Translations under genes and position numbers: made by a program
Assembly: GCA_001873565.1 (NCBI GenBank)
Contig: MNZJ01000025.1
Coordinates: 613-64,612, forward strand
Length of the DNA stretch: 64,000 nt
DNA from: Candidatus Peregrinibacteria bacterium CG2_30_44_17
Lineage (GTDB): Bacteria > Patescibacteriota > Gracilibacteria > UBA1369 > UBA12470
Reading direction: 5' to 3'
Notes under the pieces: model-generated
Database searches by the model: none
What the model saw: the letters and a program-made list of their open reading frames with translations, nothing else
What the model was told of the DNA's origin: nothing
In this document: positions 6,974 to 59,792 of the stretch, piece after piece
Position numbering within the stretch: the first letter of the stretch is position 1
How the letters are laid out: each line of letters begins with the position of its first letter

Positions 6974-8326
6974 ATGATGTCAAAGCTGTCATCAAAAATA
7001 GCGATCCTTGGGTTTGGAGTAGAGGGAAGGTCTGCCGCAAAACACCTTCGAGCAGCAGGGTATACGGATATAACCATATGCGACAAAGGGGTCGACATAG
7101 AACATGGCGAGCAAGATTTAAAATACATACTAGGAGAGAAGTACATGGACAATCTCGCAGAGTTTGACGCAATCTTCAGGTCGCCGGGCATACCGATAAG
7201 CAGAGCGGAAATCCAGAACGCAGCAAAAAACCACGTCGAGATAACAAGCGTCACAAAGTATTTCTTCGACAAATGCCCCTGCAAAATAGTTGGCGTAACG
7301 GGAACAAAAGGAAAAGGGACCACATCGACGCTACTATACGAAATGCTAAAAGCGGGAGGGGTTGATGCGTATCTTGGCGGAAACATAGGCAATTCGCCGC
7401 TAGATTTTTTGCCAAAACTAGGAAAAGAATCGATAGTTGTTCTGGAGCTGGGACATGGACAAATAGAAGATCTGCACAAAGGGCCGGAAATCGGAATAAT
7501 TATAGGGGTCACAGAAGATCACTTGGATTATCACCCAAGCACCGACAAATATAGGGCCGCCAAGTATCCATTAATAGCAAACCAGACATCTAGGCAGAAA
7601 GCCATAATAAACGTCGACTACGAAGGAAATCAGCCGTTCCTTAAGCTTGGATGCAGCAAGAAGTATGGCGTATCTACGAAGCGGTCTGTTAGGCGAGGGG
7701 CATACATGTCGAAAGACAGTATAATGCTCAAAAAAGGGCTATTCGCCGAGACGCTAATGCATGCGTCGGAAGTCGGACTTCTGGGGAAGCACAATCTCGA
7801 GAATGTACTTCCGGCATCTCTGGCAGCATCAATCCTTGGCATGCCAAGCGTCAAAATTGCAGAAACGGCAAGAAAATTCGAAGGGCTTCCTCATAGGCTA
7901 GAGGTCGTAGCAAGTAACGACGGGATAAGCTTTGTAAATGACTCGTTCTCAACTACTCCACTTACATCAATCGCTGCAATGCGCGCATTTGAGACGCCGC
8001 TCATATTTATAGCCGGTGGATCGGAGAAACACGCAGACTTTACACAGTGGGCGGAGACAGCGGCCGAAACCACAAATCTCAAGGATATACTAGTAATAGG
8101 AGAGACAGCAGGTCGGCTTACGGAAGCGCTGCAAAAAGCTGGATACCAAAACACAAGAATGGTAAAAACGCTTGAGGGTGCGTTTCAGTATGTCAAAGAT
8201 AATGGAAAAAGAGGAGATACGGTTGTGCTTTCTCCTGCATGCGCAAGTTTTGACCAGTTTAAAGACTACAAGCAGCGCGGCGAAATATTCAGCAAGATGG
8301 CCAAGGAGTTCACGACGACTTCCTAA
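6974..8326 (+). CDS. murD: UDP-N-acetylmuramoylalanine--D-glutamate ligase
   Basis: 450 aa. Rossmann-like N-terminus ILGFGVEGRS and Mur ligase P-loop GVTGTKGKGTT. Confidence 0.9.
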   Translation: MMSKLSSKIAILGFGVEGRSAAKHLRAAGYTDITICDKGVDIEHGEQDLKYILGEKYMDNLAEFDAIFRSPGIPISRAEIQNAAKNHVEITSVTKYFFDKCPCKIVGVTGTKGKGTTSTLLYEMLKAGGVDAYLGGNIGNSPLDFLPKLGKESIVVLELGHGQIEDLHKGPEIGIIIGVTEDHLDYHPSTDKYRAAKYPLIANQTSRQKAIINVDYEGNQPFLKLGCSKKYGVSTKRSVRRGAYMSKDSIMLKKGLFAETLMHASEVGLLGKHNLENVLPASLAASILGMPSVKIAETARKFEGLPHRLEVVASNDGISFVNDSFSTTPLTSIAAMRAFETPLIFIAGGSEKHADFTQWAETAAETTNLKDILVIGETAGRLTEALQKAGYQNTRMVKTLEGAFQYVKDNGKRGDTVVLSPACASFDQFKDYKQRGEIFSKMAKEFTTTS

Positions 8327-12460: not shown

Positions 12461-12509
12461 CAAAACCTCCCTCTTCCATTCCTGACTCCGTAGTGTGAAC
12501 AGGCCCTAG
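12461..12509. repeat. 49-nt dispersed intergenic element, copy 1
   Basis: caaaacCtccctcttccatTcctgaCtcCgtagTgtgaacaggccctag matches 46558-46606 at 44 of 49 positions. It fills the def/FemAB convergent gap, and the FemAB TAG stop lies within it. Confidence 0.85.
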
Positions 12510-13477
12510 CCAATTCTCTTCTTCGTCCTCATAGCCCAGTACCAAAAAGGCTTAAGAACTTTTTCGCGTGCCTTGGTATAGCTCTGCAACTCGCCGCCAA
12601 ACTTTTCCTTGAACTTGGTAATGCCTGCCCATGGATGTTGAGTGTCTCCCTCTGGAGCAACCCCAAACAAATCATAAGTCCTGCACCCTCGCTCCTTAGC
12701 ATCCAACATCGCGCGCCACTGTAGCAGGTACGGTGCCATAGCCTCTCGATGCTTACTGGACGAGGCTCCAAAATAGTAAATAGCTGTGTCTTTGTAGAAG
12801 GTGACAATAATGCCGGCAATCACCTCGCAGTCGAGTTCGGCTAAATAAAGGACAGCATTTTTACCAAGCCGGTCGAGCATCGATTGATAATATTCTTGGT
12901 CATGTCCACGAAATCCGTCACGCCCAGTAGTCTCTACAAAAATCTTAAAAAACTCACTAACATCGCGCGATGTCCGTACCGCAACGCCATGCTTCTCGGC
13001 AACCTTGATATTGTATCTGCCCTTTGGCTTCATCTGCTTAAGGATGTCTTCTTCGCTCTGGCCTAGATTGACCAAAATCGTATCCTCTGGGAAATAGTGA
13101 GAATGAGCGCTTCTCCCCCATTTGCTCAAAAAAGAACAATTACCGCAAGGCGGCTCAACTCTGACAAAAACACACTTCTCTTTTCTGGCCATTTGGATAA
13201 ACCCATCCATCAGCGGACGAAAATACCCAGGCCCGTCCAAAAGCGGTCCTCTTGGTGCAAAATACCAGCAAAGGCCCATAGGTAGCTTCTGCCTAACAAA
13301 AACCGCAGCAGCGCGCAAGCTATCGCCATCCTTGACCCCGCAAATCACAGACTTGCCTCGCGCAGCCACATTGGTTTGAAAATCCGCCCACATCGAAGTC
13401 TGATGGATATTGCCTTTTGGGTGTTTGAGCGAGAAGGCATCAAGCTCCTTTTCGGAAATTTTGCAAAATTGAAGCAT
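12506..13477 (-). CDS. FemAB-family peptidoglycan interpeptide-bridge aminoacyltransferase
   Basis: 323 aa. Length and sequence pattern (MWADFQ, YYFGASS, KFKEKFGG) are typical of FemX/FemAB family proteins. Confidence 0.75.
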   Translation of the reverse strand: MLQFCKISEKELDAFSLKHPKGNIHQTSMWADFQTNVAARGKSVICGVKDGDSLRAAAVFVRQKLPMGLCWYFAPRGPLLDGPGYFRPLMDGFIQMARKEKCVFVRVEPPCGNCSFLSKWGRSAHSHYFPEDTILVNLGQSEEDILKQMKPKGRYNIKVAEKHGVAVRTSRDVSEFFKIFVETTGRDGFRGHDQEYYQSMLDRLGKNAVLYLAELDCEVIAGIIVTFYKDTAIYYFGASSSKHREAMAPYLLQWRAMLDAKERGCRTYDLFGVAPEGDTQHPWAGITKFKEKFGGELQSYTKAREKVLKPFWYWAMRTKKRIG

Positions 13478-16545: not shown

Positions 16546-16659
16546 GCCAAAAAACGGCTAGTAAAAGCCAAGTGTGCTAATTTTTTATACAGCTACTCAA
16601 TCTGATAAAAGCCGAAAAACCACAAAAAACCAACAGCCAAAAAACGGCTAGTAAAAGCC
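16546..16659. repeat. Direct 24-nt repeats in the ftsA upstream gap
   Basis: GCCAAAAAACGGCTAGTAAAAGCC is exact at 16546-16569 and 16636-16659. The overlapping 15-mer TAAAAGCCGAAAAAC occurs at 16606-16620 and 16652-16666. Confidence 0.85.
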
Positions 16660-16868
16660 GAAAAACATGTTCAAAGTAGACCGCGAAACGCACGAGCATT
16701 GAACAATAAAATTACTCTGTCGAAAATATAAATAATTTTTTTGTTCACGGAGCCGAGAAGAGGGCTTCGGGAAGGGATCAAGTAGCCATCGGGACTTTTG
16801 AGAGGCGTATGGCGGGATCAACGAGCATGGCACGAAATAAAAAATCTGACAAAAGCAGGCCGATCATC

Positions 16869-16901
16869 AAAAAACCCCTTGTACAAGCCGTAAACAGGGG
16901 G
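16869..16901 (-). terminator. Probable intrinsic terminator after the 5'-3' exonuclease gene
   Basis: The minus strand reads CCCCCTGTTTACGGCTTGTACAAGGGG followed by TTTTTT. The stem is CCCCT(GU)/(AC)AAGGGG with one bulge. Confidence 0.5.
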
Positions 16902-21934: not shown

Positions 21935-22246
21935 ATGCAGGTAAACATTGTTACGAAACACGTTAGTGACAGGAAGAAAGAAGAATTTACAAGCTATTTT
22001 GACAAAAAAATACCAAGGATAGAGAAGCTTACAACTCATTTCGCGGACGACGCAGTCCTCCTAACGGCTACGCTTGAATATTTCGAGAAGCATGATGCCT
22101 ATAGGGCGAACTTGAGAATGGAAGTGCCGTCAAATACACTAGTCGCTGAAGAATCAGCGCACTCAGTGACGAAGGGAGTCGATGACGCTGTCGACAGACT
22201 TGTATTGCAGCTCAAAGATCACTTGGACAAATTGAGGAGTAGCTAG
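21935..22246 (+). CDS. hpf: Ribosome hibernation promoting factor / RaiA family (short form)
   Basis: 103 aa. Pattern from MQVNIVTKHV to AVDRLVLQLKDHLDKLRS is typical of sigma54-modulation/RaiA proteins. Confidence 0.75.
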   Translation: MQVNIVTKHVSDRKKEEFTSYFDKKIPRIEKLTTHFADDAVLLTATLEYFEKHDAYRANLRMEVPSNTLVAEESAHSVTKGVDDAVDRLVLQLKDHLDKLRSS

Positions 22247-22414
22247 AGCCAAATCAAAGTAAAATGATTCACGACACAGGAGTGAATATTTTTCGCGGAA
22301 AATCGAGCAAAACCCTATCGAGGGATAGCAGCGCTATTTAAGGCTTTTGAGAGAGGAGCCATATGGCAAAATACTCCTGAATATCTGTGTTATTTTATTT
22401 TGATTTGGCTCTAG
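22243..22414. repeat. 172-nt element closed by a perfect 16-bp terminal inverted repeat (candidate structured RNA or MITE)
   Basis: CTAGAGCCAAATCAAA (22243-22258) pairs with TTTGATTTGGCTCTAG (22399-22414). The helix continues with GTAAAAT/ATTTTAT and ACACAG/CTGTGT plus GGAGT/ACTCC. Interior mini-hairpins are TTTTC-GCG-GAAAA and CTATC-GAGG-GATAG. The 5' arm contains the hpf stop codon. Confidence 0.8.
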
Positions 22415-22478
22415 CTGGACGATAGCCGCATAACTTAGTACACTGTGGCTACGGAATTAACACTATCTAACTTACACA

Positions 22479-28589: not shown

Positions 28590-29450
28590 TTAGTTAGTAT
28601 CAGATTGGCTGTCGTCATCAAAGCGCTCCTTGGGTGGAACAAATTTCTTAATATCGGAAACGCTAGCGGAAAAGAATTCGCCATCGTTTTCAAGACGTAT
28701 CTTCTGATTCAAAACGTCGGCACCGCGCAGCCTGCCTTTGCGTTTATCATTTAGGAAAACCTCACTCATCATAGGGGGTATGTTTTTGCGCAAATTATCA
28801 TATTCCTTCGCTTCATAAGAAAGACAACACATAAGTTTGCCGCAGACGCCAGAAAGCTTCTCGCTACCTTTGTTAGACATGCCCTGCACGCGTACCATGT
28901 CCATTGTAATACTGCTCAGCTTGCCAACAACTTGGCCACAACACAATTTCCTGCCACATTTTCCATATCCACGAACAAATCTGGATTTATCACGAGGGCC
29001 TATCTGTTGCAAATGGATCTGTTTTTGAAATTTTTTGGCAAGATCTTTCACCAGTTCGCGGAAATCAACTCGCTCCTCAGATGTAAAAACAAAATTGATT
29101 TTCGCACCATCCAGAGAATATATAGTCTCTACAAGATGCATGTTAAGTTCGTATTCGTCTATGAGCTTCCTGCATGCTGCCGCAGCTTCATCGGAAGATT
29201 CTTTATTTGCATTGAGCCTCTGAACGTCATGGTCAGTAGCTTTTCTAAGGACAAGGTAGCCCTTGGACAAGTCATCGTCTTCGACATCGGTAGGAGACAT
29301 AATGACCCTACCCATCTCATTAGAACCTTCATCGTCAGAAAAAACAACGATGTCAGCCTTGTCAAAAGAGTCATCATCAGCCGAGGGGATGTAAATAGTC
29401 TTATAATGAAAAAAGGAGGATATTCCGTGGGCCTTGGTTTTTTTAGCCAT
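28590..29450 (-). CDS. PSP1-domain protein (YaaT/RicT-like)
   Basis: Cys-rich PSP1 core (CGRKLCC, CGKLMCCLSYE). Conserved position downstream of holB. Confidence 0.8.
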   Translation of the reverse strand: MAKKTKAHGISSFFHYKTIYIPSADDDSFDKADIVVFSDDEGSNEMGRVIMSPTDVEDDDLSKGYLVLRKATDHDVQRLNANKESSDEAAAACRKLIDEYELNMHLVETIYSLDGAKINFVFTSEERVDFRELVKDLAKKFQKQIHLQQIGPRDKSRFVRGYGKCGRKLCCGQVVGKLSSITMDMVRVQGMSNKGSEKLSGVCGKLMCCLSYEAKEYDNLRKNIPPMMSEVFLNDKRKGRLRGADVLNQKIRLENDGEFFSASVSDIKKFVPPKERFDDDSQSDTN

Positions 29451-30465: not shown

Positions 30466-31767
30466 CTATATACTCTCCCAAGAATCATCCTGCCTCACCA
30501 GTAAGTCTCTTGCTCTCTCAGGCTCAGCCATGATCTCTTTGATACATCTCTCGAGCCTAACTTTATTTTGAGATCCTTTGACCAAGACGATGTCGCCGGT
30601 CTTTAGCTTACCGGAGAGAAACTCGCCTGCGTCTTTTGAGTCAACAAAACTCCAAACATGACTTTGTTGAAGTCCGGCTTTCACAGCCTCTTCGGCATAC
30701 AAGCGCGCGTGGTCACCGACTGTTATGAGCAAATCAGCAACTTTTGCAGCTTCTTTGCCGACTTTGCGATGCTCGCTGTCTGTGAGGTCTCCAATTTCAT
30801 TCATGTTACCAAGGACTGCAATGCGTCGGCCAACACCTTTTGGATGTATTTCGCCAAGGACATCGAGAGCTACGGCCATTGTAGCTGGAGAAGCATTGTA
30901 AGAACTGTCGATTATAATACTATTTGAAACTCCGGGGATGAGGTTCATGCGACCTGGTGGCAAGACGAAATCTTCGAGACCAGCCTTAATAGTTTCCCAC
31001 TTGAATTGATTTAAAAAGCCAATAGCAATTGCAGGAAGCACAACATAGACATGATGCTTCCCAATCAAATTCGGAAGCTGCACGTGTATAGTTTTTTCAT
31101 CAAACAGGAGGTCGAATTCCAGTCCTTTTTCGCTGCTTTTTACATTCATAGCTCTGATATCGGCGCCCTCCCCCATGCCAAAAGTAATAACATTTGCACT
31201 CAGCTGATTTGATATTAATGACAAATAGTGATCATCGGCATTCAAAATAGCCCAATCGTTTTCGCCCATCCTTTTTACTAATTTCGATTTTTCATTAAGT
31301 ATTTCTTCCAAATTCTTAAACTGACCCTCGTCCAGGTGAATAGGCTTGATCGTCGTCATAACTCCAACAGTTGGCTGTACGAACTGGAGAAGGACATCCA
31401 TGTCTTTTGGCTTGTCGACACCCATTTCGAGGACCATCTTCGTGTATGGAGTCTTGTCAAAAAAAGCGGTTTCAAAAGCCCCCCAAAGCGCTATCATCCA
31501 TTTCAGAGGTGACGAAAAGCCGGACTCTTGATTAAGTATAGAAAGAAGCAACCCGAATTCGGTATTGTAACTTTTCTGATTTTTCAGAACCTGTTGGCGA
31601 CGTGCAAGGACATGATAAATAGCCTCTTTCGTGCTGGTTTTCCCAACAGAGCCAGTCACACCTATAATCTCAGGCTTCAGCTTGTTGAGACGATGTCTCG
31701 CAAGCGTCTTTAAGTACCAGAGAATAGCGGATTTTGCCTTGTTTTTAGCCTTCATTGAGGGATTCAT
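30466..31767 (-). CDS. murF: UDP-N-acetylmuramoyl-tripeptide--D-alanyl-D-alanine ligase
   Basis: Mur ligase P-loop IGVTGSVGKTSTKE. Length is 433 aa. Confidence 0.85.
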   Translation of the reverse strand: MNPSMKAKNKAKSAILWYLKTLARHRLNKLKPEIIGVTGSVGKTSTKEAIYHVLARRQQVLKNQKSYNTEFGLLLSILNQESGFSSPLKWMIALWGAFETAFFDKTPYTKMVLEMGVDKPKDMDVLLQFVQPTVGVMTTIKPIHLDEGQFKNLEEILNEKSKLVKRMGENDWAILNADDHYLSLISNQLSANVITFGMGEGADIRAMNVKSSEKGLEFDLLFDEKTIHVQLPNLIGKHHVYVVLPAIAIGFLNQFKWETIKAGLEDFVLPPGRMNLIPGVSNSIIIDSSYNASPATMAVALDVLGEIHPKGVGRRIAVLGNMNEIGDLTDSEHRKVGKEAAKVADLLITVGDHARLYAEEAVKAGLQQSHVWSFVDSKDAGEFLSGKLKTGDIVLVKGSQNKVRLERCIKEIMAEPERARDLLVRQDDSWESI

Positions 31768-31802
31768 GAATGCATTCTGCCGAAAATCCTAAAAAAAAGA
31801 AA

Positions 31803-31828
31803 TTGACCGCAAAAGAAAATGTTATAAT
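31803..31828 (+). promoter_or_regulatory. Putative sigma70-type promoter (extended -10) for the acyP leader
   Basis: TTGACC (31803-31808) and TGTTATAAT (the -10 at 31823-31828). The spacer is only 14 nt, so the extended -10 reading is favoured. Confidence 0.45.
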
Positions 31829-31864
31829 ACGAGAGCATGCGATATCAAAATTGCTCACTATCTC

Positions 31865-31880
31865 GCGCGAAGCGCTCCAT
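31865..31880 (+). promoter_or_regulatory. Conserved 16-nt leader box GCGCGAAGCGCTCCAT (copy 1)
   Basis: Identical 16-mer at 58979-58994. It contains the GCGAAGC mini-hairpin core. Confidence 0.7.
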
Positions 31881-31943
31881 CCCTACACCCTACACCCTAC
31901 ACCCTACACCCTACACCCTACACCCTAAGTCCTAAATCTTACC
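31881..31943 (+). repeat. Heptanucleotide tandem array (CCCTACA)x6 plus 3 degenerate units, ending at the acyP start codon
   Basis: Six perfect CCCTACA units span 31881-31922, followed by CCCTAAG, TCCTAAA and TCTTACC. TTG at 31944 follows directly. The minus strand reads (TGTAGGG)n. Confidence 0.95.
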
Positions 31944-32219
31944 TTGCCAGCATATAAACTCAAAATTCACGGGAAAGTTCAAGGAGTATTCTATCGAGAC
32001 TTCGCCAGAAAGCAGGCGGAAGCCTTGGATATTAGCGGATGGGCGAAAAATGATTCCGACGGAACAGTCACTGCTTACATTCAGGGGGAGGAAGACAAGA
32101 TCGATTATTTTCTCGTACTACTATGGAGCGGACCGGAAGCATCAAAAGTTCAAAACATACAAAAAGAGCCCTCCGTAGAGGACCCTATGATAACTCTATT
32201 TGAAATCAGATATGACTAA
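31944..32219 (+). CDS. acyP: Acylphosphatase
   Basis: 91 aa with GKVQGVFYRDF and GWAKNDSDGTV signatures. The only in-frame start after the upstream stop at 31926-31928 is TTG at 31944. Confidence 0.8.
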   Translation: MPAYKLKIHGKVQGVFYRDFARKQAEALDISGWAKNDSDGTVTAYIQGEEDKIDYFLVLLWSGPEASKVQNIQKEPSVEDPMITLFEIRYD

Positions 32220-32852: not shown

Positions 32853-32880
32853 TCTACAGTCTACAGTTTACAGTCTACTT
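32853..32880. repeat. Heptad array TCTACAG TCTACAG TTTACAG TCTACTT in the infC-rpmI spacer
   Basis: CTA/TTA occur at 32854, 32861, 32868 and 32875, exactly 7 nt apart. The unit at 32875-32877 is the infC TAG stop on the minus strand. Confidence 0.8.
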
Positions 32881-40537: not shown

Positions 40538-41069
40538 TTACTAATCTTAAGAATTCGTTACGGGTATCTGTATTCCTTTTAAATAGTCCTTTGAGTGCGG
40601 AAGTTGTTACATTGCTGCTCTGTTTTTCTACACCACGAGCCATCATACAAAGATGCTTCGCCTCAATAATAACAGCAACGCCTCGAGGATGTAATACGTC
40701 GTCAAGCGCATCTGCAATTTGCTGAGTAAGCCTCTCCTGATTCTGAAGTCGGCGCGAAAAAACCTCAACCAATCTGGGGAACTTAGATAGGCCAACTATC
40801 TTGCCATTGGGGATATAGGCGATATGAACTTTCCCAAAAAAAGGCATCATGTGATGTTCGCAAGTACTAAAAAACTCAATATCCTTAACCAAAATCATCT
40901 CATCGTAATTTTCTCCGTCAAACGTCTTTATGATATCTTTCGGATTTTCGTTGTAGCCTCCAAAAAGCTTTCCTACCATCTTCTCGACACGCTTTGGCGT
41001 GTCAAGTAGGCCCTCTCTGTCGGGATCTTCGCCTATCGATTTAAAAAACTCTCTAAGATTCTGCATCAC
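40530..41069 (-). CDS. folE: GTP cyclohydrolase I
   Basis: [10 protein letters not shown] and QERLTQQIA signatures. 179 aa. Confidence 0.9.
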
Positions 41070-41625
41070 ACATTTTTAAAAAATATTTATGCACGGTTGT
41101 ATCAAGGGTCAATTCGGGATGGAAGGTCGATACGAGAATATTCCCTTGGCGACACATTATAATGTCAGATTGGTATTTAGCCAAAATTTCTACATCGCTA
41201 CCGACATGCAAAATCCGCGGAGCACGAATAAAAACGGCATGTATAGTTTTGCCAAGCACCTCGATCTCAGATTCAAAACTATCAAGTTGCCTTCCGTATG
41301 CATTTCTCTCGATATCTATATCTATCAGTCCAAGGTTGTCAGCTTTTAGATCACCTGATACGGTTTTTGCTAACAAGATGGCTCCAGCACAAGTGCCGTA
41401 AACAGGCATTCCGGTGCGCACACGTTTTATTATAGCTTTGCCGAGTCCTTCGAGCTTAAGGAGCTTCCCAATAGTGGTACTCTCGCCACCTGGCATAGCA
41501 AGGAGGTCTACCTTGTCAAGATCAGCAGTTGTTCTAACTTCGATAACATCTCCTGCGCCGGCTCTTTTGAGGGCTCGTACATGTTCAATGACTGAACCTT
41601 GGATTGCTAGGACTCCTGCTTTCAT
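41053..41625 (-). CDS. pdxT: Pyridoxal 5'-phosphate synthase glutaminase subunit
   Basis: 190-aa class I amidotransferase ([17 protein letters not shown]). Confidence 0.9.
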
Positions 41626-41648: not shown

Positions 41649-41724
41649 TTTTTTTGTTTTCGCGAGCGGCTCTGCAGTCCCGCCTTGGCGGGACGAAGCC
41701 CTAGCGAGTGACAAACAAAAAAAA
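41649..41724. other. Long intercistronic hairpin between pdxS and pdxT
   Basis: The core GTCCCGCC (41677-41684) / GGCGGGAC (41687-41694) is nested inside the flanking complementary runs TTTTTTTGTTT (41649-41659) and AAACAAAAAAA (41713-41723). Confidence 0.65.
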
Positions 41725-42693: not shown

Positions 42694-42728
42694 CACTAAT
42701 CCCTAACCGCTAAATCCTAAGTCCTAAC
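42694..42728. repeat. Heptad array with five CTA in exact 7-nt phase
   Basis: cACTAat ccCTAac cgCTAaa tcCTAag tcCTAac, with CTA at 42696, 42703, 42710, 42717 and 42724. The unit at 42724-42726 is the TAG stop of the TrmB-like gene on the minus strand. Confidence 0.85.
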
Positions 42729-46557: not shown

Positions 46558-46606
46558 CAAAACTTCCCTCTTCCATCCCTGATTCTGTAGCGTGAACAGG
46601 CCCTAG
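46558..46606. repeat. 49-nt dispersed intergenic element, copy 2
   Basis: Matches 12461-12509 at 44 of 49 positions. All five differences are C/T transitions. It lies between the comM stop and the carB start. Confidence 0.85.
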
Positions 46607-46626
46607 GAAGTTCAAAGAGTCAAAAG

Positions 46627-51063: not shown

Positions 51064-51100
51064 TACTACTGACTACCGACTACTGACTAAATCCTACTAA
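51064..51100. repeat. Heptad array ACTACTG ACTACCG ACTACTG ACTAAAT CCTACTA ending 2 nt before the lysS start
   Basis: CTA at 51066, 51073, 51080, 51087 and 51094, exactly 7 nt apart. Confidence 0.8.
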
Positions 51101-51102
51101 CC

Positions 51103-52668
51103 ATGTTTTGGGTAGACGAAATCGCAGACGACATAATAGCCAAATATCCCGACCAAGACACATTCGTAATCCGTGATGAGAAGACGCTGTCCGGACGTGT
51201 CCACATAGGATCTCTTCGAGGAGTAGTCATACATGGTATCATTGCACAGGCACTTCGCGAACGCGGCAAAAAAGCGGAATACTACTTTGAGTTCAACGAC
51301 TTCGATCCGATGGACGGACTACCTGTCTACTTGGATCAGGATAAATACAAGCAGTACATGGGGCAGCCACTTTATACGGTTCCATCGCCGGATCCTGATT
51401 TCAAGAACTATCCCGAATACTTTGGTGAGGAGTTCTTGAGCGTAATAAAGGCCGTAGGCTTCGACCCAAAAATTATAAGAGCAAAAGATCTATACCAAAA
51501 CGGGACCTATAATAAATGGATAGAAAAAGTCCTGACCCATCCAAACGAAATCCGCCAAATTTACAAAGAAGTTAGCGGCAGCGAAAAACCCGACGACTGG
51601 TACCCGTTGCAGGTAATATGTGAAAAATGCGGCAAAGTCGGCACGACAAAAGTCACAGGCATCAAAGGCGACAAAGTAACATACAAATGCATGCCTGACA
51701 TGGTGTCATGGGCGCAAGGATGCGGACACGAAGGCGAGATAAATCCATACGATGGACGCAGCAAACTGCCTTGGAAAGTAGAGTGGGCGGTCAAATGGTC
51801 CGGATTGCCGGTTACGATTGAGGGATCGGGCAAAGACCACAACGCAGCAGGAGGATCTCACGACATTTCCGTCAGGATTTGCAAAGAGATACTGGAGATG
51901 CCGGTTCCATACAACATACCTTACGAATTTTTCTTAACAGGTGGCGCGAAAATGAGCTCATCAAAAGGTGAAGGAGCGACAGCAAAAGCTATCGGGGAAT
52001 TATTGCCACCTGAGATCCTAAGATTTTTGATGATTCAGAAGCACCCAAAACGTCCGATCGAGTTCAACCCGGAGGGATCAACAGTCCCGGTTCTATTCGA
52101 TCAGCACGACAAAGCATCGGAGCAGTATTTCGCCTCGGAGCCGGAAATCCCGGACCATGGAAGACTTTTTCACTACTCTCAAATCAGCGACGCCAAACCG
52201 GTCAAGCATTATTTGCCACGATTCACGAGAGTTATTTTCTTCCTGCAAATGCCGCACATGGACGCGGAGAAGGAAATAGCAGAGATAAAAGGTAGCAAGC
52301 TAACAGTGGAAGACAAAGAAGAAGTGGCAATGCGAATAAAGTACGGCAAAAAGTGGCTAGACTCATACGCACCGGAAGACTTCGTATTTGAGGTGCAAGA
52401 AGTAGCGCCGTCAGTTGATTTGTCTCAAGACCAGAAACAATTCTTACTCCATATAGCGGAAGCGATGAAAGGCGCGGATCTAAAAGGCGAAGACCTCCAC
52501 GCAGAAATCCACAAGATCAGAAAAGCATCACCGTTGCAGCCTCGTGACGCGTTCCAAGCGATATACTTAGCACTTCTGGGAAAAGACTCCGGTCCTCAGG
52601 CCGGTTGGTTCTTGGAAGCTCTTAAAAAAGAGTTCGTAATAAAAAGGTTCACAGAATTGTCAGCCTAA
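51103..52668 (+). CDS. lysS: Lysyl-tRNA synthetase, class I (archaeal-type)
   Basis: 521 aa. HIGH-like SGRVHIGSLRG and KMSSSKG (the class I LysRS form of KMSKS), with no class II motifs. Confidence 0.85.
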   Translation: MFWVDEIADDIIAKYPDQDTFVIRDEKTLSGRVHIGSLRGVVIHGIIAQALRERGKKAEYYFEFNDFDPMDGLPVYLDQDKYKQYMGQPLYTVPSPDPDFKNYPEYFGEEFLSVIKAVGFDPKIIRAKDLYQNGTYNKWIEKVLTHPNEIRQIYKEVSGSEKPDDWYPLQVICEKCGKVGTTKVTGIKGDKVTYKCMPDMVSWAQGCGHEGEINPYDGRSKLPWKVEWAVKWSGLPVTIEGSGKDHNAAGGSHDISVRICKEILEMPVPYNIPYEFFLTGGAKMSSSKGEGATAKAIGELLPPEILRFLMIQKHPKRPIEFNPEGSTVPVLFDQHDKASEQYFASEPEIPDHGRLFHYSQISDAKPVKHYLPRFTRVIFFLQMPHMDAEKEIAEIKGSKLTVEDKEEVAMRIKYGKKWLDSYAPEDFVFEVQEVAPSVDLSQDQKQFLLHIAEAMKGADLKGEDLHAEIHKIRKASPLQPRDAFQAIYLALLGKDSGPQAGWFLEALKKEFVIKRFTELSA

Positions 52669-57979: not shown

Positions 57980-58016
57980 CAACTACCCCCTAAGTCCTAA
58001 ATCCTAAGTCCTACTT
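57980..58016. repeat. Heptad array between convergent guaA and murI
   Basis: CTA at 57983, 57990, 57997, 58004 and 58011, exactly 7 nt apart (CCTAAGT/CCTAAAT units). The unit at 58011-58013 is the murI TAG stop. Confidence 0.85.
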
Positions 58017-58918: not shown

Positions 58919-58947
58919 TTGACCTATTGGGCAAAAACAGGTATAAT
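58919..58947 (+). promoter_or_regulatory. Near-consensus sigma70-type promoter upstream of the K+ channel gene
   Basis: TTGACC (58919-58924), a 17-nt spacer and TATAAT (58942-58947). Confidence 0.65.
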
Positions 58948-58978: not shown

Positions 58979-59017
58979 GCGCGAAGCGCTCCATGGAACA
59001 AAACCCCTAAGTCCTAA
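58979..59017 (+). promoter_or_regulatory. Leader boxes GCGCGAAGCGCTCCAT and CCCTAAGTCCTAA (copy 2)
   Basis: The 16-mer at 58979-58994 is identical to 31865-31880. The 13-mer at 59005-59017 is identical to 31923-31935. Confidence 0.7.
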
Positions 59018-59033
59018 CTACAAAAAGCACCTC

Positions 59034-59792
59034 ATGGATTTCAAAGAAGCAATTAACATTATCGAACAGCGCGGAGACTTCAATCAGTATGCGAAGTTAC
59101 GTACTGTTTTTGAAGATAAATTACAGGAGTTGGACAGGTCGGACTACACGGAAAGAGGGCTTTGCTACTATTACCTCTTAGTTAGCTTGCTCAAAGCACA
59201 CTTGGTTTACGATACGGAAGAGTGTAGGGAGTTTTATACAAGAATGGACATCGAATTCCAGAAGCAGGAAGAGAAATACAAAGAGGAGAGGGCAAGATTC
59301 TCAGGCATGGAGATTGCGGATTTTTACCATCTAATGGAGCGTTGTTACAGCTCGCTCGAGATCATATACGAGAAGAAAGACTTTGCAGAGAGCCGCAAGA
59401 AATCTTATGAAAGGAAGATGATTTTTAGGAAAAACGCATATTGGTTCGAAAAAAAATACGGAAGTTGGCTCGAATACGAACTGCTGCAACTTACATGTCT
59501 ATATGGCGACAGTTTCGTTAGATGGGGAATAACTGCATTAGCTTTTAGCTTTGTAGTAGCTTTCTTATATTTCTTGATAGACCTGCCTGTCGCAGAGCAG
59601 CACAAAATGGTTTCAGGCCTCGGAGGGCACTGGTTTGATTACATCTACTTCTCTATCATTACCCTGACAAGCTTGGGATTCGGGGATTTCGTACCGATGA
59701 CATTAGCAGGGAAAATACTAACCTCAATAGAAGCATTTTTTGGATTCGTAATGCTTGGTATTTTTATCACACTGATACAGAAAAAAATCTAG
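59034..59792 (+). CDS. Two-TM potassium channel (Ion_trans_2) with N-terminal soluble domain
   Basis: K+ selectivity filter TLTSLGFGD lies between two C-terminal TM helices. Start set at the ATG at 59034, because 58962-59033 carries a nucleotide-level repeat shared, in a different frame, with the acyP leader. Confidence 0.7.
   Translation: MDFKEAINIIEQRGDFNQYAKLRTVFEDKLQELDRSDYTERGLCYYYLLVSLLKAHLVYDTEECREFYTRMDIEFQKQEEKYKEERARFSGMEIADFYHLMERCYSSLEIIYEKKDFAESRKKSYERKMIFRKNAYWFEKKYGSWLEYELLQLTCLYGDSFVRWGITALAFSFVVAFLYFLIDLPVAEQHKMVSGLGGHWFDYIYFSIITLTSLGFGDFVPMTLAGKILTSIEAFFGFVMLGIFITLIQKKI

Follow-up and report, generated by a model that had tools for sequence, protein, structure and literature searches.

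The leader of acyP, an acylphosphatase gene in a 64,000-nucleotide stretch of contig MNZJ01000025.1 from Candidatus Peregrinibacteria bacterium CG2_30_44_17 (the whole of this stretch is called the window here), carries a box with a short hairpin, followed by a tandem array of CCCTACA heptads that runs up to a TTG start codon. The array is a genuine hypervariable repeat and is naturally polymorphic among groundwater populations. On balance we take the acyP array, the longest in the window and the only one there with perfect repeats, to be one copy of a module that occurs in leaders and between cistrons and is specific to this lineage of Peribacteria. With a similar, moderate degree of confidence we propose that this is a lineage-specific leader module for initiation independent of Shine-Dalgarno (SD) pairing, in which the heptad tract grows by slippage. 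Read along the sense strand, the module consists of a short G/C hairpin, the motif (A/T)CCAT, a G-poor tract of CTA-type heptads and the start codon. It is a previously undescribed module, but one of a recognisable kind.

Anatomy of the acyP leader

The elements of the leader and the two divergent genes that flank it are as follows, in window coordinates.

30466 to 31767 (-): MurF-type Mur ligase gene, divergent from acyP; the anchor for fetching the locus from other assemblies
31803 to 31828 (+): putative acyP promoter, with TTGACC at 31803-31808, a 14-nt spacer and the extended -10 TGtTATAAT at 31820-31828
31857 to 31864 (+): upstream flank ACTATCTC, a CTA-type unit before the hairpin; consensus ACTAWCTC in the alignment of seven loci
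31865 to 31875 (+): hairpin GCGC-GAA-GCGC, a 4-bp G/C stem with a triloop; RNA folding free energy (dG) -5.2 kcal/mol
31876 to 31880 (+): motif TCCAT on the 3' side of the hairpin; one copy has TCAAT instead, and sibling species show ACCAT, ACAAT or ACCAA
31881 to 31922 (+): six perfect CCCTACA units, the hypervariable part, from Tandem Repeats Finder (TRF) and from the alleles in other assemblies
31881 to 31927 (-): (TGTAGGG)n, a quadruplex-type G3N4 motif found by motif scan, on the template strand of acyP and upstream of the divergent murF
31923 to 31943 (+): three degenerate units abutting the start codon, the first 13 nt of which are the box CCCTAAGTCCTAA; family D1
31944 to 32219 (+): acyP, acylphosphatase of 91 aa (PF00708 annotation), TTG start, no SD sequence

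As read from the sequence, the box GCGCGAAGCGCTCCAT occupies 31865-31880 on the plus strand, 5' of the array. Six perfect CCCTACA units (31881-31922) are succeeded by the degenerate units CCCTAAG, TCCTAAA and TCTTACC (31923-31943), and the TTG of acyP comes directly next, at 31944. TRF reports (CCCTACA) x6.7 at 31881-31927, with 100% matches and a score of 94, as the top tandem array of the window. The array is thus just as the preliminary description of this locus had given it, with six perfect and three degenerate units ending exactly at the TTG, and at 6.7 heptads it is a perfect tandem repeat long enough for slippage, as in simple sequence repeats (SSRs). No GGAG-type motif, that is, no SD sequence, is present between the repeat and the start. 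Exact matches to GCGCGAAGCGCTCCAT occur twice in the window, at 31865 and 58979; those to CCCTAAGTCCTAA are at 31923, 57988 and 59005, and when up to 2 mismatches are allowed the window holds 7 matches to the latter where 1.25 are expected.

The plus strand is free of G for 54 nt (31875-31928). Folding of the leader gave minimum free energy z scores of -0.19 with 6 units and -0.61 with 14 units, neither of which is significant, and the array is unpaired in the prediction; the G-free, unstructured leader proposed at the outset is therefore upheld. A global RNA structure of the leader was rejected because the folds are not significant, and a known RNA family was ruled out since Rfam returned no match at gathering scores over the window, nor any with E<=10 over 31700-32050. 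No tRNA was found in the window.

A simple promoter scan missed the candidate at 31803-31828 on account of its 14-nt spacer. Three relatives with MurF proteins that are 75-80% identical (the loci L007, L040 and L042; loci from other assemblies are designated by such numbers) have kept GAAATTGACC and AAATGTTATAAT in the spacer between acyP and murF, so that these sequences are conserved in four species. This conservation across species supports the putative promoter that had been suggested. The box lies about 25-36 nt downstream of a promoter-like -10 at acyP and likewise at 58979.

Copy number variation of the heptad array

The same locus was fetched from independent groundwater assemblies by exact-protein look-up. 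The metagenome scan itself did not return the acyP or 58979 loci, though its pattern matches them, and hence the copy numbers come from these look-ups. Six units are present in four assemblies (the window, L003, L005 and L032), 8 units in L002, and 14 units in both L001 (JGI) and L030 (NCBI GCA_002773865.1). The contig of L006 ends inside the array after at least 10 units, L004 has an N-gap in the array and L038 a contig end within it. The flanks are 99.83-100% identical, and the heptad array is the only indel over the 11-21 kb compared. The polymorphism typical of an SSR, with 6, 8, 14 and at least 10 units among otherwise near-identical genomes, is thus observed, and the copy number differs between populations. 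The distance from hairpin to start codon at acyP is accordingly 68 nt with 6 units, 82 nt with 8 and 124 nt with 14; the 21 nt beside the TTG are constant. Because three or more alleles exist at this one locus, the array mutates faster than point sites do. The shorter or imperfect arrays at 32853 and 57989 and the module at 58979 are of invariant length in the other assemblies compared.

It is hardly credible that these differences are spurious products of assembly. Short-read assembly is error-prone at tandem repeats and three contigs end or have a gap inside the array, but the arrays measure 47-103 nt, less than the final k-mers to which the contig names of several of the assemblies point (k127/k141), and the same numbers recur in independent assemblies from different pipelines (6 in four assemblies, 14 in the JGI and NCBI records); on both grounds we do not regard the copy numbers as artefacts. 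The shorter arrays nearby, moreover, never vary.

There are 23 variable sites among the strains, 13 of them in a cluster within a single gene. Alleles with 6 units belong to one haplotype, those with 8 or 14 units to another. What the data describe is strain-level polymorphism; rapid switching goes beyond them. The clustered sites fall in the PSP1-domain gene at 28728-29385, where the 13 lie within 660 bp, mostly at spacings that are multiples of 3 and in mosaic combinations, which suggests a recombined or mixed-strain segment.

A second polymorphic perfect array, (TACTGAC)n, was seen at another locus of the lineage, with 3.6 units in L019 (10111-10135) and L021 and 4.6 units in L020 (2285-2316). 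It lies 3' of the same hairpin box, and 1 nt separates its end from the ATG of a rubrerythrin/VIT-like gene.

The preliminary description regarded acyP as a plausible contingency (phase-variable) locus. Under this explanation selection would keep a hypermutable array, or rheostat, so that sub-populations vary in their level of acyP or murF, much as at hmwA, whose (ATCTTTC)n repeat offers a precedent for graded control (PMC8262952, PMC12721329). The array is indeed perfect, long and polymorphic, with a conserved promoter on one side and the start codon on the other; the contig breaks and gaps in several assemblies are compatible with heterogeneity within samples, and the TACTGAC array also differs by one unit between samples. 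Yet acyP encodes a cytoplasmic acylphosphatase of housekeeping type, not a surface, restriction-modification or host-interaction protein, and similar tracts are also found ahead of V-ATPase genes, purH and further genes of an ordinary kind. All three reading frames close before the TTG is reached from the array, so that no frame switch is to be seen. From its place between the -10 and the start codon the array leaves core promoter spacing unaffected; it is not in the position of an SSR switch, and an on/off mechanism is not apparent. In contrast to hmwA, the repeats here lack both a G-rich pairing partner and a predicted hairpin. Copy number tracks the single-nucleotide haplotypes, which strain-level drift fits as well as rapid switching does, and the array is absent from related species. 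Of the earlier proposal, then, the varying copy number stands; a selected phase-variation role for acyP is unproven, and we consider such a locus improbable.

A gain of units at acyP lengthens the leader and leaves the sequence beside the start codon unaltered. Any effect on acyP expression would be graded and modest at most, rather than on/off; a graded effect of the length of the 5' untranslated region (5'-UTR) is possible. The alleles of 6, 8 and 14 or more units constitute a natural allelic series. There is also a practical consequence, in that the array breaks or leaves a gap in several metagenome assemblies.

The box is part of a dispersed module

The box had been described as one paralogous pair (31865/58979). 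It belongs instead to a dispersed family: the metagenome scan and fuzzy searches found 5 loci with the exact box and 2 more with variants of it, so that about 107 kb of non-redundant sequence contain at least 7 distinct loci. The box precedes a rubrerythrin/VIT-like gene in L019, L020 and L021, a purH-like gene in L020, and the gene for V-ATPase subunit F in L022 and L023; the variants precede those for subunits E and D. All seven boxes lie in sense orientation to the gene that follows, with CTA-type heptads (CCCTAnn and the like) immediately 3' and the start codon 45-85 nt further on, and boxes within operons lie a few nucleotides past the upstream stop codon. Chance does not account for the boxes, which recur at unlinked loci. 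A covariance-model search of 210 kb yielded no further copy of the box that held up beyond the seven loci.

The heptad tracts extend further than the box. Each of the nine cistrons of the V-ATPase operon in L022 is preceded by a CTA-rich tract, mostly of CCCTAnn type. Among the unique intergenic arrays of period 7 or 14 in the lineage, 9 of 11 are in forward orientation, with their ends 1-27 nt short of a start codon. The heptads are rich in CTAC, which does not adjoin the hairpin stem. A general 7-nt periodicity of intergenic DNA was considered and set aside, since autocorrelation is only weak; the heptads are local arrays. The other copies and tracts in the window are these.

32853 to 32878 (+): (TCTACAG) x3.7 in the infC-rpmI spacer, antisense to those genes; length stable
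42695 to 42727 (+): degenerate tract ACTAATCCCTAACCGCTAAATCCTAAGTCCTAA between gene ends; families D1 and D3
51065 to 51102 (+): heptad tract ACTACTG ACTACCG ACTACTG ACTAAAT CCTACTA ACC, ending at the ATG at 51103; no hairpin box
57988 to 58014 (+): tract CCCTAAG TCCTAAA TCCTAAG TCCTAC between convergent genes; invariant in 6 assemblies
58979 to 59017 (+): second module copy, with the box at 58979-58994, 10 nt, and CCCTAAGTCCTAA at 59005-59017

The module at 58979 has TTGACC-17-TATAAT upstream (58919-58947) and an ATG downstream at 59035, and shows no change in length in 6 other assemblies. The heptads at acyP had been viewed as an expansion inside a conserved module, and this view is well founded in that the module is present elsewhere without the expansion. 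The gene downstream of the 58979 copy matches PF07885 (Ion_trans_2). Its longest open reading frame (ORF) starts at ATG 58962 and would read the hairpin box as LREALH; because the box is non-coding everywhere else, ATG 59035 is the more likely true start.

Variation of the hairpin

Pairing is retained at every position of the stem across the 7 loci (28 of 28 pair cells). One copy, GCGT-GAA-ACGC, has a compensatory change from C-G to U-A and another, GCGC-GGAA-GCGC, a different loop. In L038, whose MurF is 99% identical, the same site holds a hairpin longer by 23 nt, with a dG of -17.5 and ending in ...GGAAGCGCTCCAT. Hairpins of the window species and of sibling species were compared by a direct hairpin search. 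Two sibling species (V-ATPase B 89-91% identical) have the same architecture built with other hairpins, of 7-8 bp:

GTTTCGC-GCA-GCGAAAC
GTTTTCGC-GAA-GCGAAAAC
GTTTCGC-ACCA-GCGAAAC
GTCCCGC-TGA-GCGGGAC
GTTTCGCC-CAA-GGCGAAAC

These have dG values of -7.9 to -13.1 and z scores of -2.1 to -6.5. They are followed by ACCAT, ACAAT, ACCAA or CTGCC, then by CTA-rich repeats, namely (ACAAACT/ACGAACT)x5, (GTACTAR)x5 or units of CTACAA type, and then by ATG. The sibling modules precede different cistrons than in the window species, and the copies are not orthologous. A CGC-GAA-GCG core is common to the window box and one sibling hairpin. The window also contains a hairpin of a second type, the stem of which matches a module hairpin of a sibling species (L036, 6012):

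41677 to 41694 (-): GTCCCGC-CAAG-GCGGGAC, located 70 nt 5' of the gene at 41053-41625 (-)

The preliminary description had pointed to GCGAAGC as an exceptionally stable mini-hairpin sequence. This sequence is not what is conserved, since loop, stem and length all vary among copies, strains and species. Judged from these comparisons, what persists appears to be a hairpin followed by (A/T)CCAT rather than the GCGAAGC sequence. The d(GCGAAGC) mini-hairpin was reportedly described by Hirao and colleagues in the 1990s. The heptamer is contained in the box; in the module, however, it is the presence of a hairpin that appears to be maintained while its loop and stem sequence vary.

Orthologous acyP leaders vary as well. 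In L007 the leader lacks a hairpin and has TCCAT with 45 nt of CTAC-rich sequence after it; that of L040 is plain and only 30 nt long, and a hairpin with ACCAAT sits upstream of the -10 instead. The assembly of L042 has a gap at this point. The acyP leader 3' of the promoter is thus evolutionarily fluid. In L040 a composite array is present at about 900-1060, between the 3' ends of acyP and rplT, with (CTACGGCCTACGAA)x4, then (CTACGAA)x4, as well as repeats of GAAATTC type; it shows that heptad and 14-mer arrays also build up at convergent gene ends in relatives.

Initiation without Shine-Dalgarno pairing

Many bacteria lack SD pairing, and how start codons are found in such bacteria has barely been studied in the candidate phyla radiation (CPR), of which few members are in culture. 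Candidatus Peribacter riflensis is SD-scarce, with 7% SD genes and a 16S tail that reads GAACACTTCCTTA in place of ...CCUCC... (PMC10783764). Start composition was analyzed here in 64 ATG-started ORFs of the lineage. G makes up 7-10% of positions -15 to -1 against a background of about 21%; SD-like motifs are not enriched (8 of 64, versus 10 of 64 in the control window), and CCTA is (12 of 64 versus 4 of 64). The idea that the heptads serve as an alternative SD was discarded, since the published Peribacter tail GAACACTTCCTTA, with which the comparison was made in place of the window organism's own 16S, is rich in pyrimidines and unable to pair with a tract that has no G.

We propose that the heptad tract would provide a G-free, unstructured landing zone for SD-independent initiation, which may be bound by the 30S subunit with S1 or by another single-strand-binding factor. 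The hairpin would mark the 5' edge of this zone, roughly 40-90 nt from the start, either as a structural boundary or as a processing or stability element. Replication slippage of tandem 7-nt units would both make the tract and resize it. The locus offers a concrete, recurring architecture before ordinary genes in an SD-poor CPR lineage.

Several observations weigh against this proposal. The tracts at 57988 and 42695 are not upstream of a start, and that at 32853 is antisense. The hairpin of the window species has only 4 bp and is weak (-5.2 kcal/mol), and the covariation rests on single events, with 73 of 500 shuffles reaching the observed score. That five copies agree in all 16 nt could stem from a repeat having spread recently and not from selection. 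As the acyP leader of L007 is without the hairpin and that of L040 without either element, the module is dispensable for acyP. Finally, L019-L023 are tied to the lineage only by shared sequence features and one protein name.

Some of these points recur in another explanation, a selfish or neutral dispersed repeat, in which a hairpin-heptad unit resembling repetitive extragenic palindromes (REP) or miniature inverted-repeat transposable elements (MITE) spreads or becomes homogenised within each genome, is tolerated between genes, carries a slippage-prone tail and has no function in expression. We think this unlikely, if a good deal less so than an error of assembly. It would account for hairpins that are species-specific and near-identical among the copies within a species, for modules that stand before different, non-orthologous cistrons in sibling species, for orthologous acyP leaders without the module, for the 23-nt indel in the hairpin region between strains with 99% identical MurF, and for tracts between convergent genes. 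It does not readily account for the strict placement, with seven of seven boxes in the sense orientation 45-85 nt before a start and 9 of 11 arrays forward and adjacent to a start, nor for the agreement of tract composition with the general depletion of G at the starts of this genome. No association with a transposase or with REP-associated tyrosine transposases (RAYT) turned up, in searches none of which was aimed at one, and the box had no match among viral contigs.

The proposal of a leader module for SD-independent initiation can be carried further. The combination of hairpin, CCAT and CTA-heptad tract might be the Peribacteria's own signal for start-site selection, with the hairpin fencing off a single-stranded platform of at least about 45 nt that recruits the 30S subunit or a dedicated factor, and with slippage retuning translation gene by gene. 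We put this forward tentatively, as a possibility rather than an expectation.

Quadruplex potential of the template strand

The minus strand of the array had been noted to fit the canonical quadruplex (G4) pattern, and so it does: the 64 kb contain no second G3N1-7 x4 motif on either strand, and shuffled sequences have a mean of 0.29. One might therefore suppose that the locus is a DNA-structure element, in which a (TGTAGGG)n quadruplex, with an i-motif on the C strand, is the selected feature and tunes the acyP and murF promoters or stalls replication. In its favour, two further leader tracts of the lineage besides that of acyP (L022 4348 and L022 10428) give G4 motifs on the template strand, and each observed allele retains at least 7 G-tracts. 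The equivalent tracts of sibling species, built of ACAAACT, GTACTAA and CTACAA units, do not share this potential, however. No G- or C-run motif was found at the tracts of L007, L033 and L036, and most heptad tracts of the window genome itself (TCCTAAA, TACTGAC, ACTACTG) are unable to form G4. The pattern as such is thus real, but a selected structure is very improbable. From these comparisons the G4 potential looks like a by-product of the CCCTAnn units, and it may add to the instability of the acyP array.

Comparison with known heptamer repeats and palindromes

The closest precedent of the module is the TAACTGA heptamer repeats, which stand immediately before SD-less starts in Beggiatoaceae and in some Cyanobacteria and Bacteroidetes and vary by 7-nt indels from strain to strain (MacGregor 2015, PMC4679880). 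Both systems are built of tandem 7-nt units, none with more than one G, in forward orientation and a few nucleotides from SD-less starts; both precede many unrelated genes, operon-internal ones included, and differ by 7-nt indels between close strains; in both, a translational role is a proposal. They differ in that the units here are CCCTACA, CCCTAAG, TCCTAAA and ACTACTG, with only TACTGAC sharing the ACTGA core, in that several unit types coexist here in Peribacteria of the CPR, and in the coupling to an upstream hairpin and CCAT, which is not described for TAACTGA. Heptamer repeats before starts are hereby extended to a fourth, very distant group beyond Beggiatoaceae, Cyanobacteria and Bacteroidetes, which argues for convergent use of such repeats in SD-poor genomes.

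The (ATCTTTC)n repeats of hmw1A and hmw2A in Haemophilus influenzae resemble the acyP array as heptanucleotide SSRs between promoter and start that are polymorphic in copy number (PMC8262952, PMC12721329). They lie in a transcribed 5'-UTR, as the acyP leader presumably does, and a graded effect of length is conceivable in both. The hmwA repeat works via a long hairpin cleaved by RNase III (PMC12721329), in which a G-rich arm is the partner of the repeats; neither such a partner nor such a fold exists in the acyP leader. The hmw genes encode surface adhesins under host selection, whereas acyP encodes a small metabolic enzyme.

Cyanobacterial short tandemly repeated repetitive (STRR) sequences and heptamer repeats, such as those at Nostoc recF and recO (10.1101/2022.06.06.494920), are likewise intergenic heptamers found genome-wide near promoters and starts in a lineage with weak SD usage, but have other unit sequences, occur in another phylum and have no associated hairpin box. 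The starts of Flavobacteriia and other groups with SD-independent initiation (PMC10783764) are similarly G-depleted, A-rich and unstructured, and the Peribacter 16S tail lacks CCUCC; the heptad construction and the upstream hairpin are absent from the pattern described for Bacteroidetes. REP palindromes and bacterial interspersed mosaic elements (BIME) are, like the hairpins here, short, species-specific and intergenic in many copies, often just 3' of operon-internal stops. The stems of the window species are much shorter, though, their orientation is strictly tied to the downstream gene and the heptad tract is always 3'.

The acyP gene, its neighbours and the host lineage

The acyP translation contains the VQGVxxR and GWxxN motifs. 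Its orthologs start at the identical codon, with GTG in L007 and ATG in L040, and the start call is therefore sound. The neighbours of acyP are holB, the PSP1-domain gene, infC-rpmI-rplT and ispG. The window organism is a groundwater bacterium of the Candidatus Peribacteria (CPR). The relatives of its MurF protein come from metagenome-assembled genomes of Candidatus Peribacteria/Peregrinibacteria, the closest species representative being 80% identical. One of the box-bearing loci encodes a V-ATPase subunit B identical to one from 'Candidatus Peregrinibacteria bacterium CG22_combo...'. The acyP product is recorded in only 4 contigs, although for the neighbouring MurF and L20 the collection has 89 and 107 indexed blocks, respectively, and the DNA is identical. 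Gene callers evidently skip the TTG-started, SD-less acyP ORF.

Two ORFs that overlap the array were rejected as coding. That at 31770-31928 is in frame with acyP but stops at the TAA at 31926, and that at 31837-31935 would give PTPYTLH repeats. Neither is kept in L007 or L040, other modules have stops in all frames, and the copy numbers 6, 8 and 14 are not frame-preserving.

Other repeats in and near the window

An element of about 175 nt at 22241-22416 has 28-bp terminal inverted repeats (AGAGCCAAATCAAAGTAAAATGA...TGTTATTTTATTTTGATTTGGCTCT) and folds into one long hairpin (dG -70.6, z = -8.55). It is also present in L020 (about 7017-7190), L021 (32-84) and L042 (about 1340-1470), and a copy at another locus is 79-89% identical. 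The core, AGCGCTAT..AGGCTTTTG..GCCATATGGC, recurs beside murF in a sibling species. The element at 22241-22416 had no match in Rfam and could be MITE-like or an unannotated structured RNA. Two 56-nt copies (12461-12516 and 46558-46613; CAAAACYTCCCTCTTCCATYCCTGAYTCYGTAGYGTGAACAGGCCCTAG...) are 86% identical and lie at the ends of, or between, minus-strand genes. The 24-nt sequence GCCAAAAAACGGCTAGTAAAAGCC occurs exactly at 16546-16569 and at 16636-16659, 90 nt apart in a gene-poor stretch, with a third, 75% identical copy at 16866-16889.

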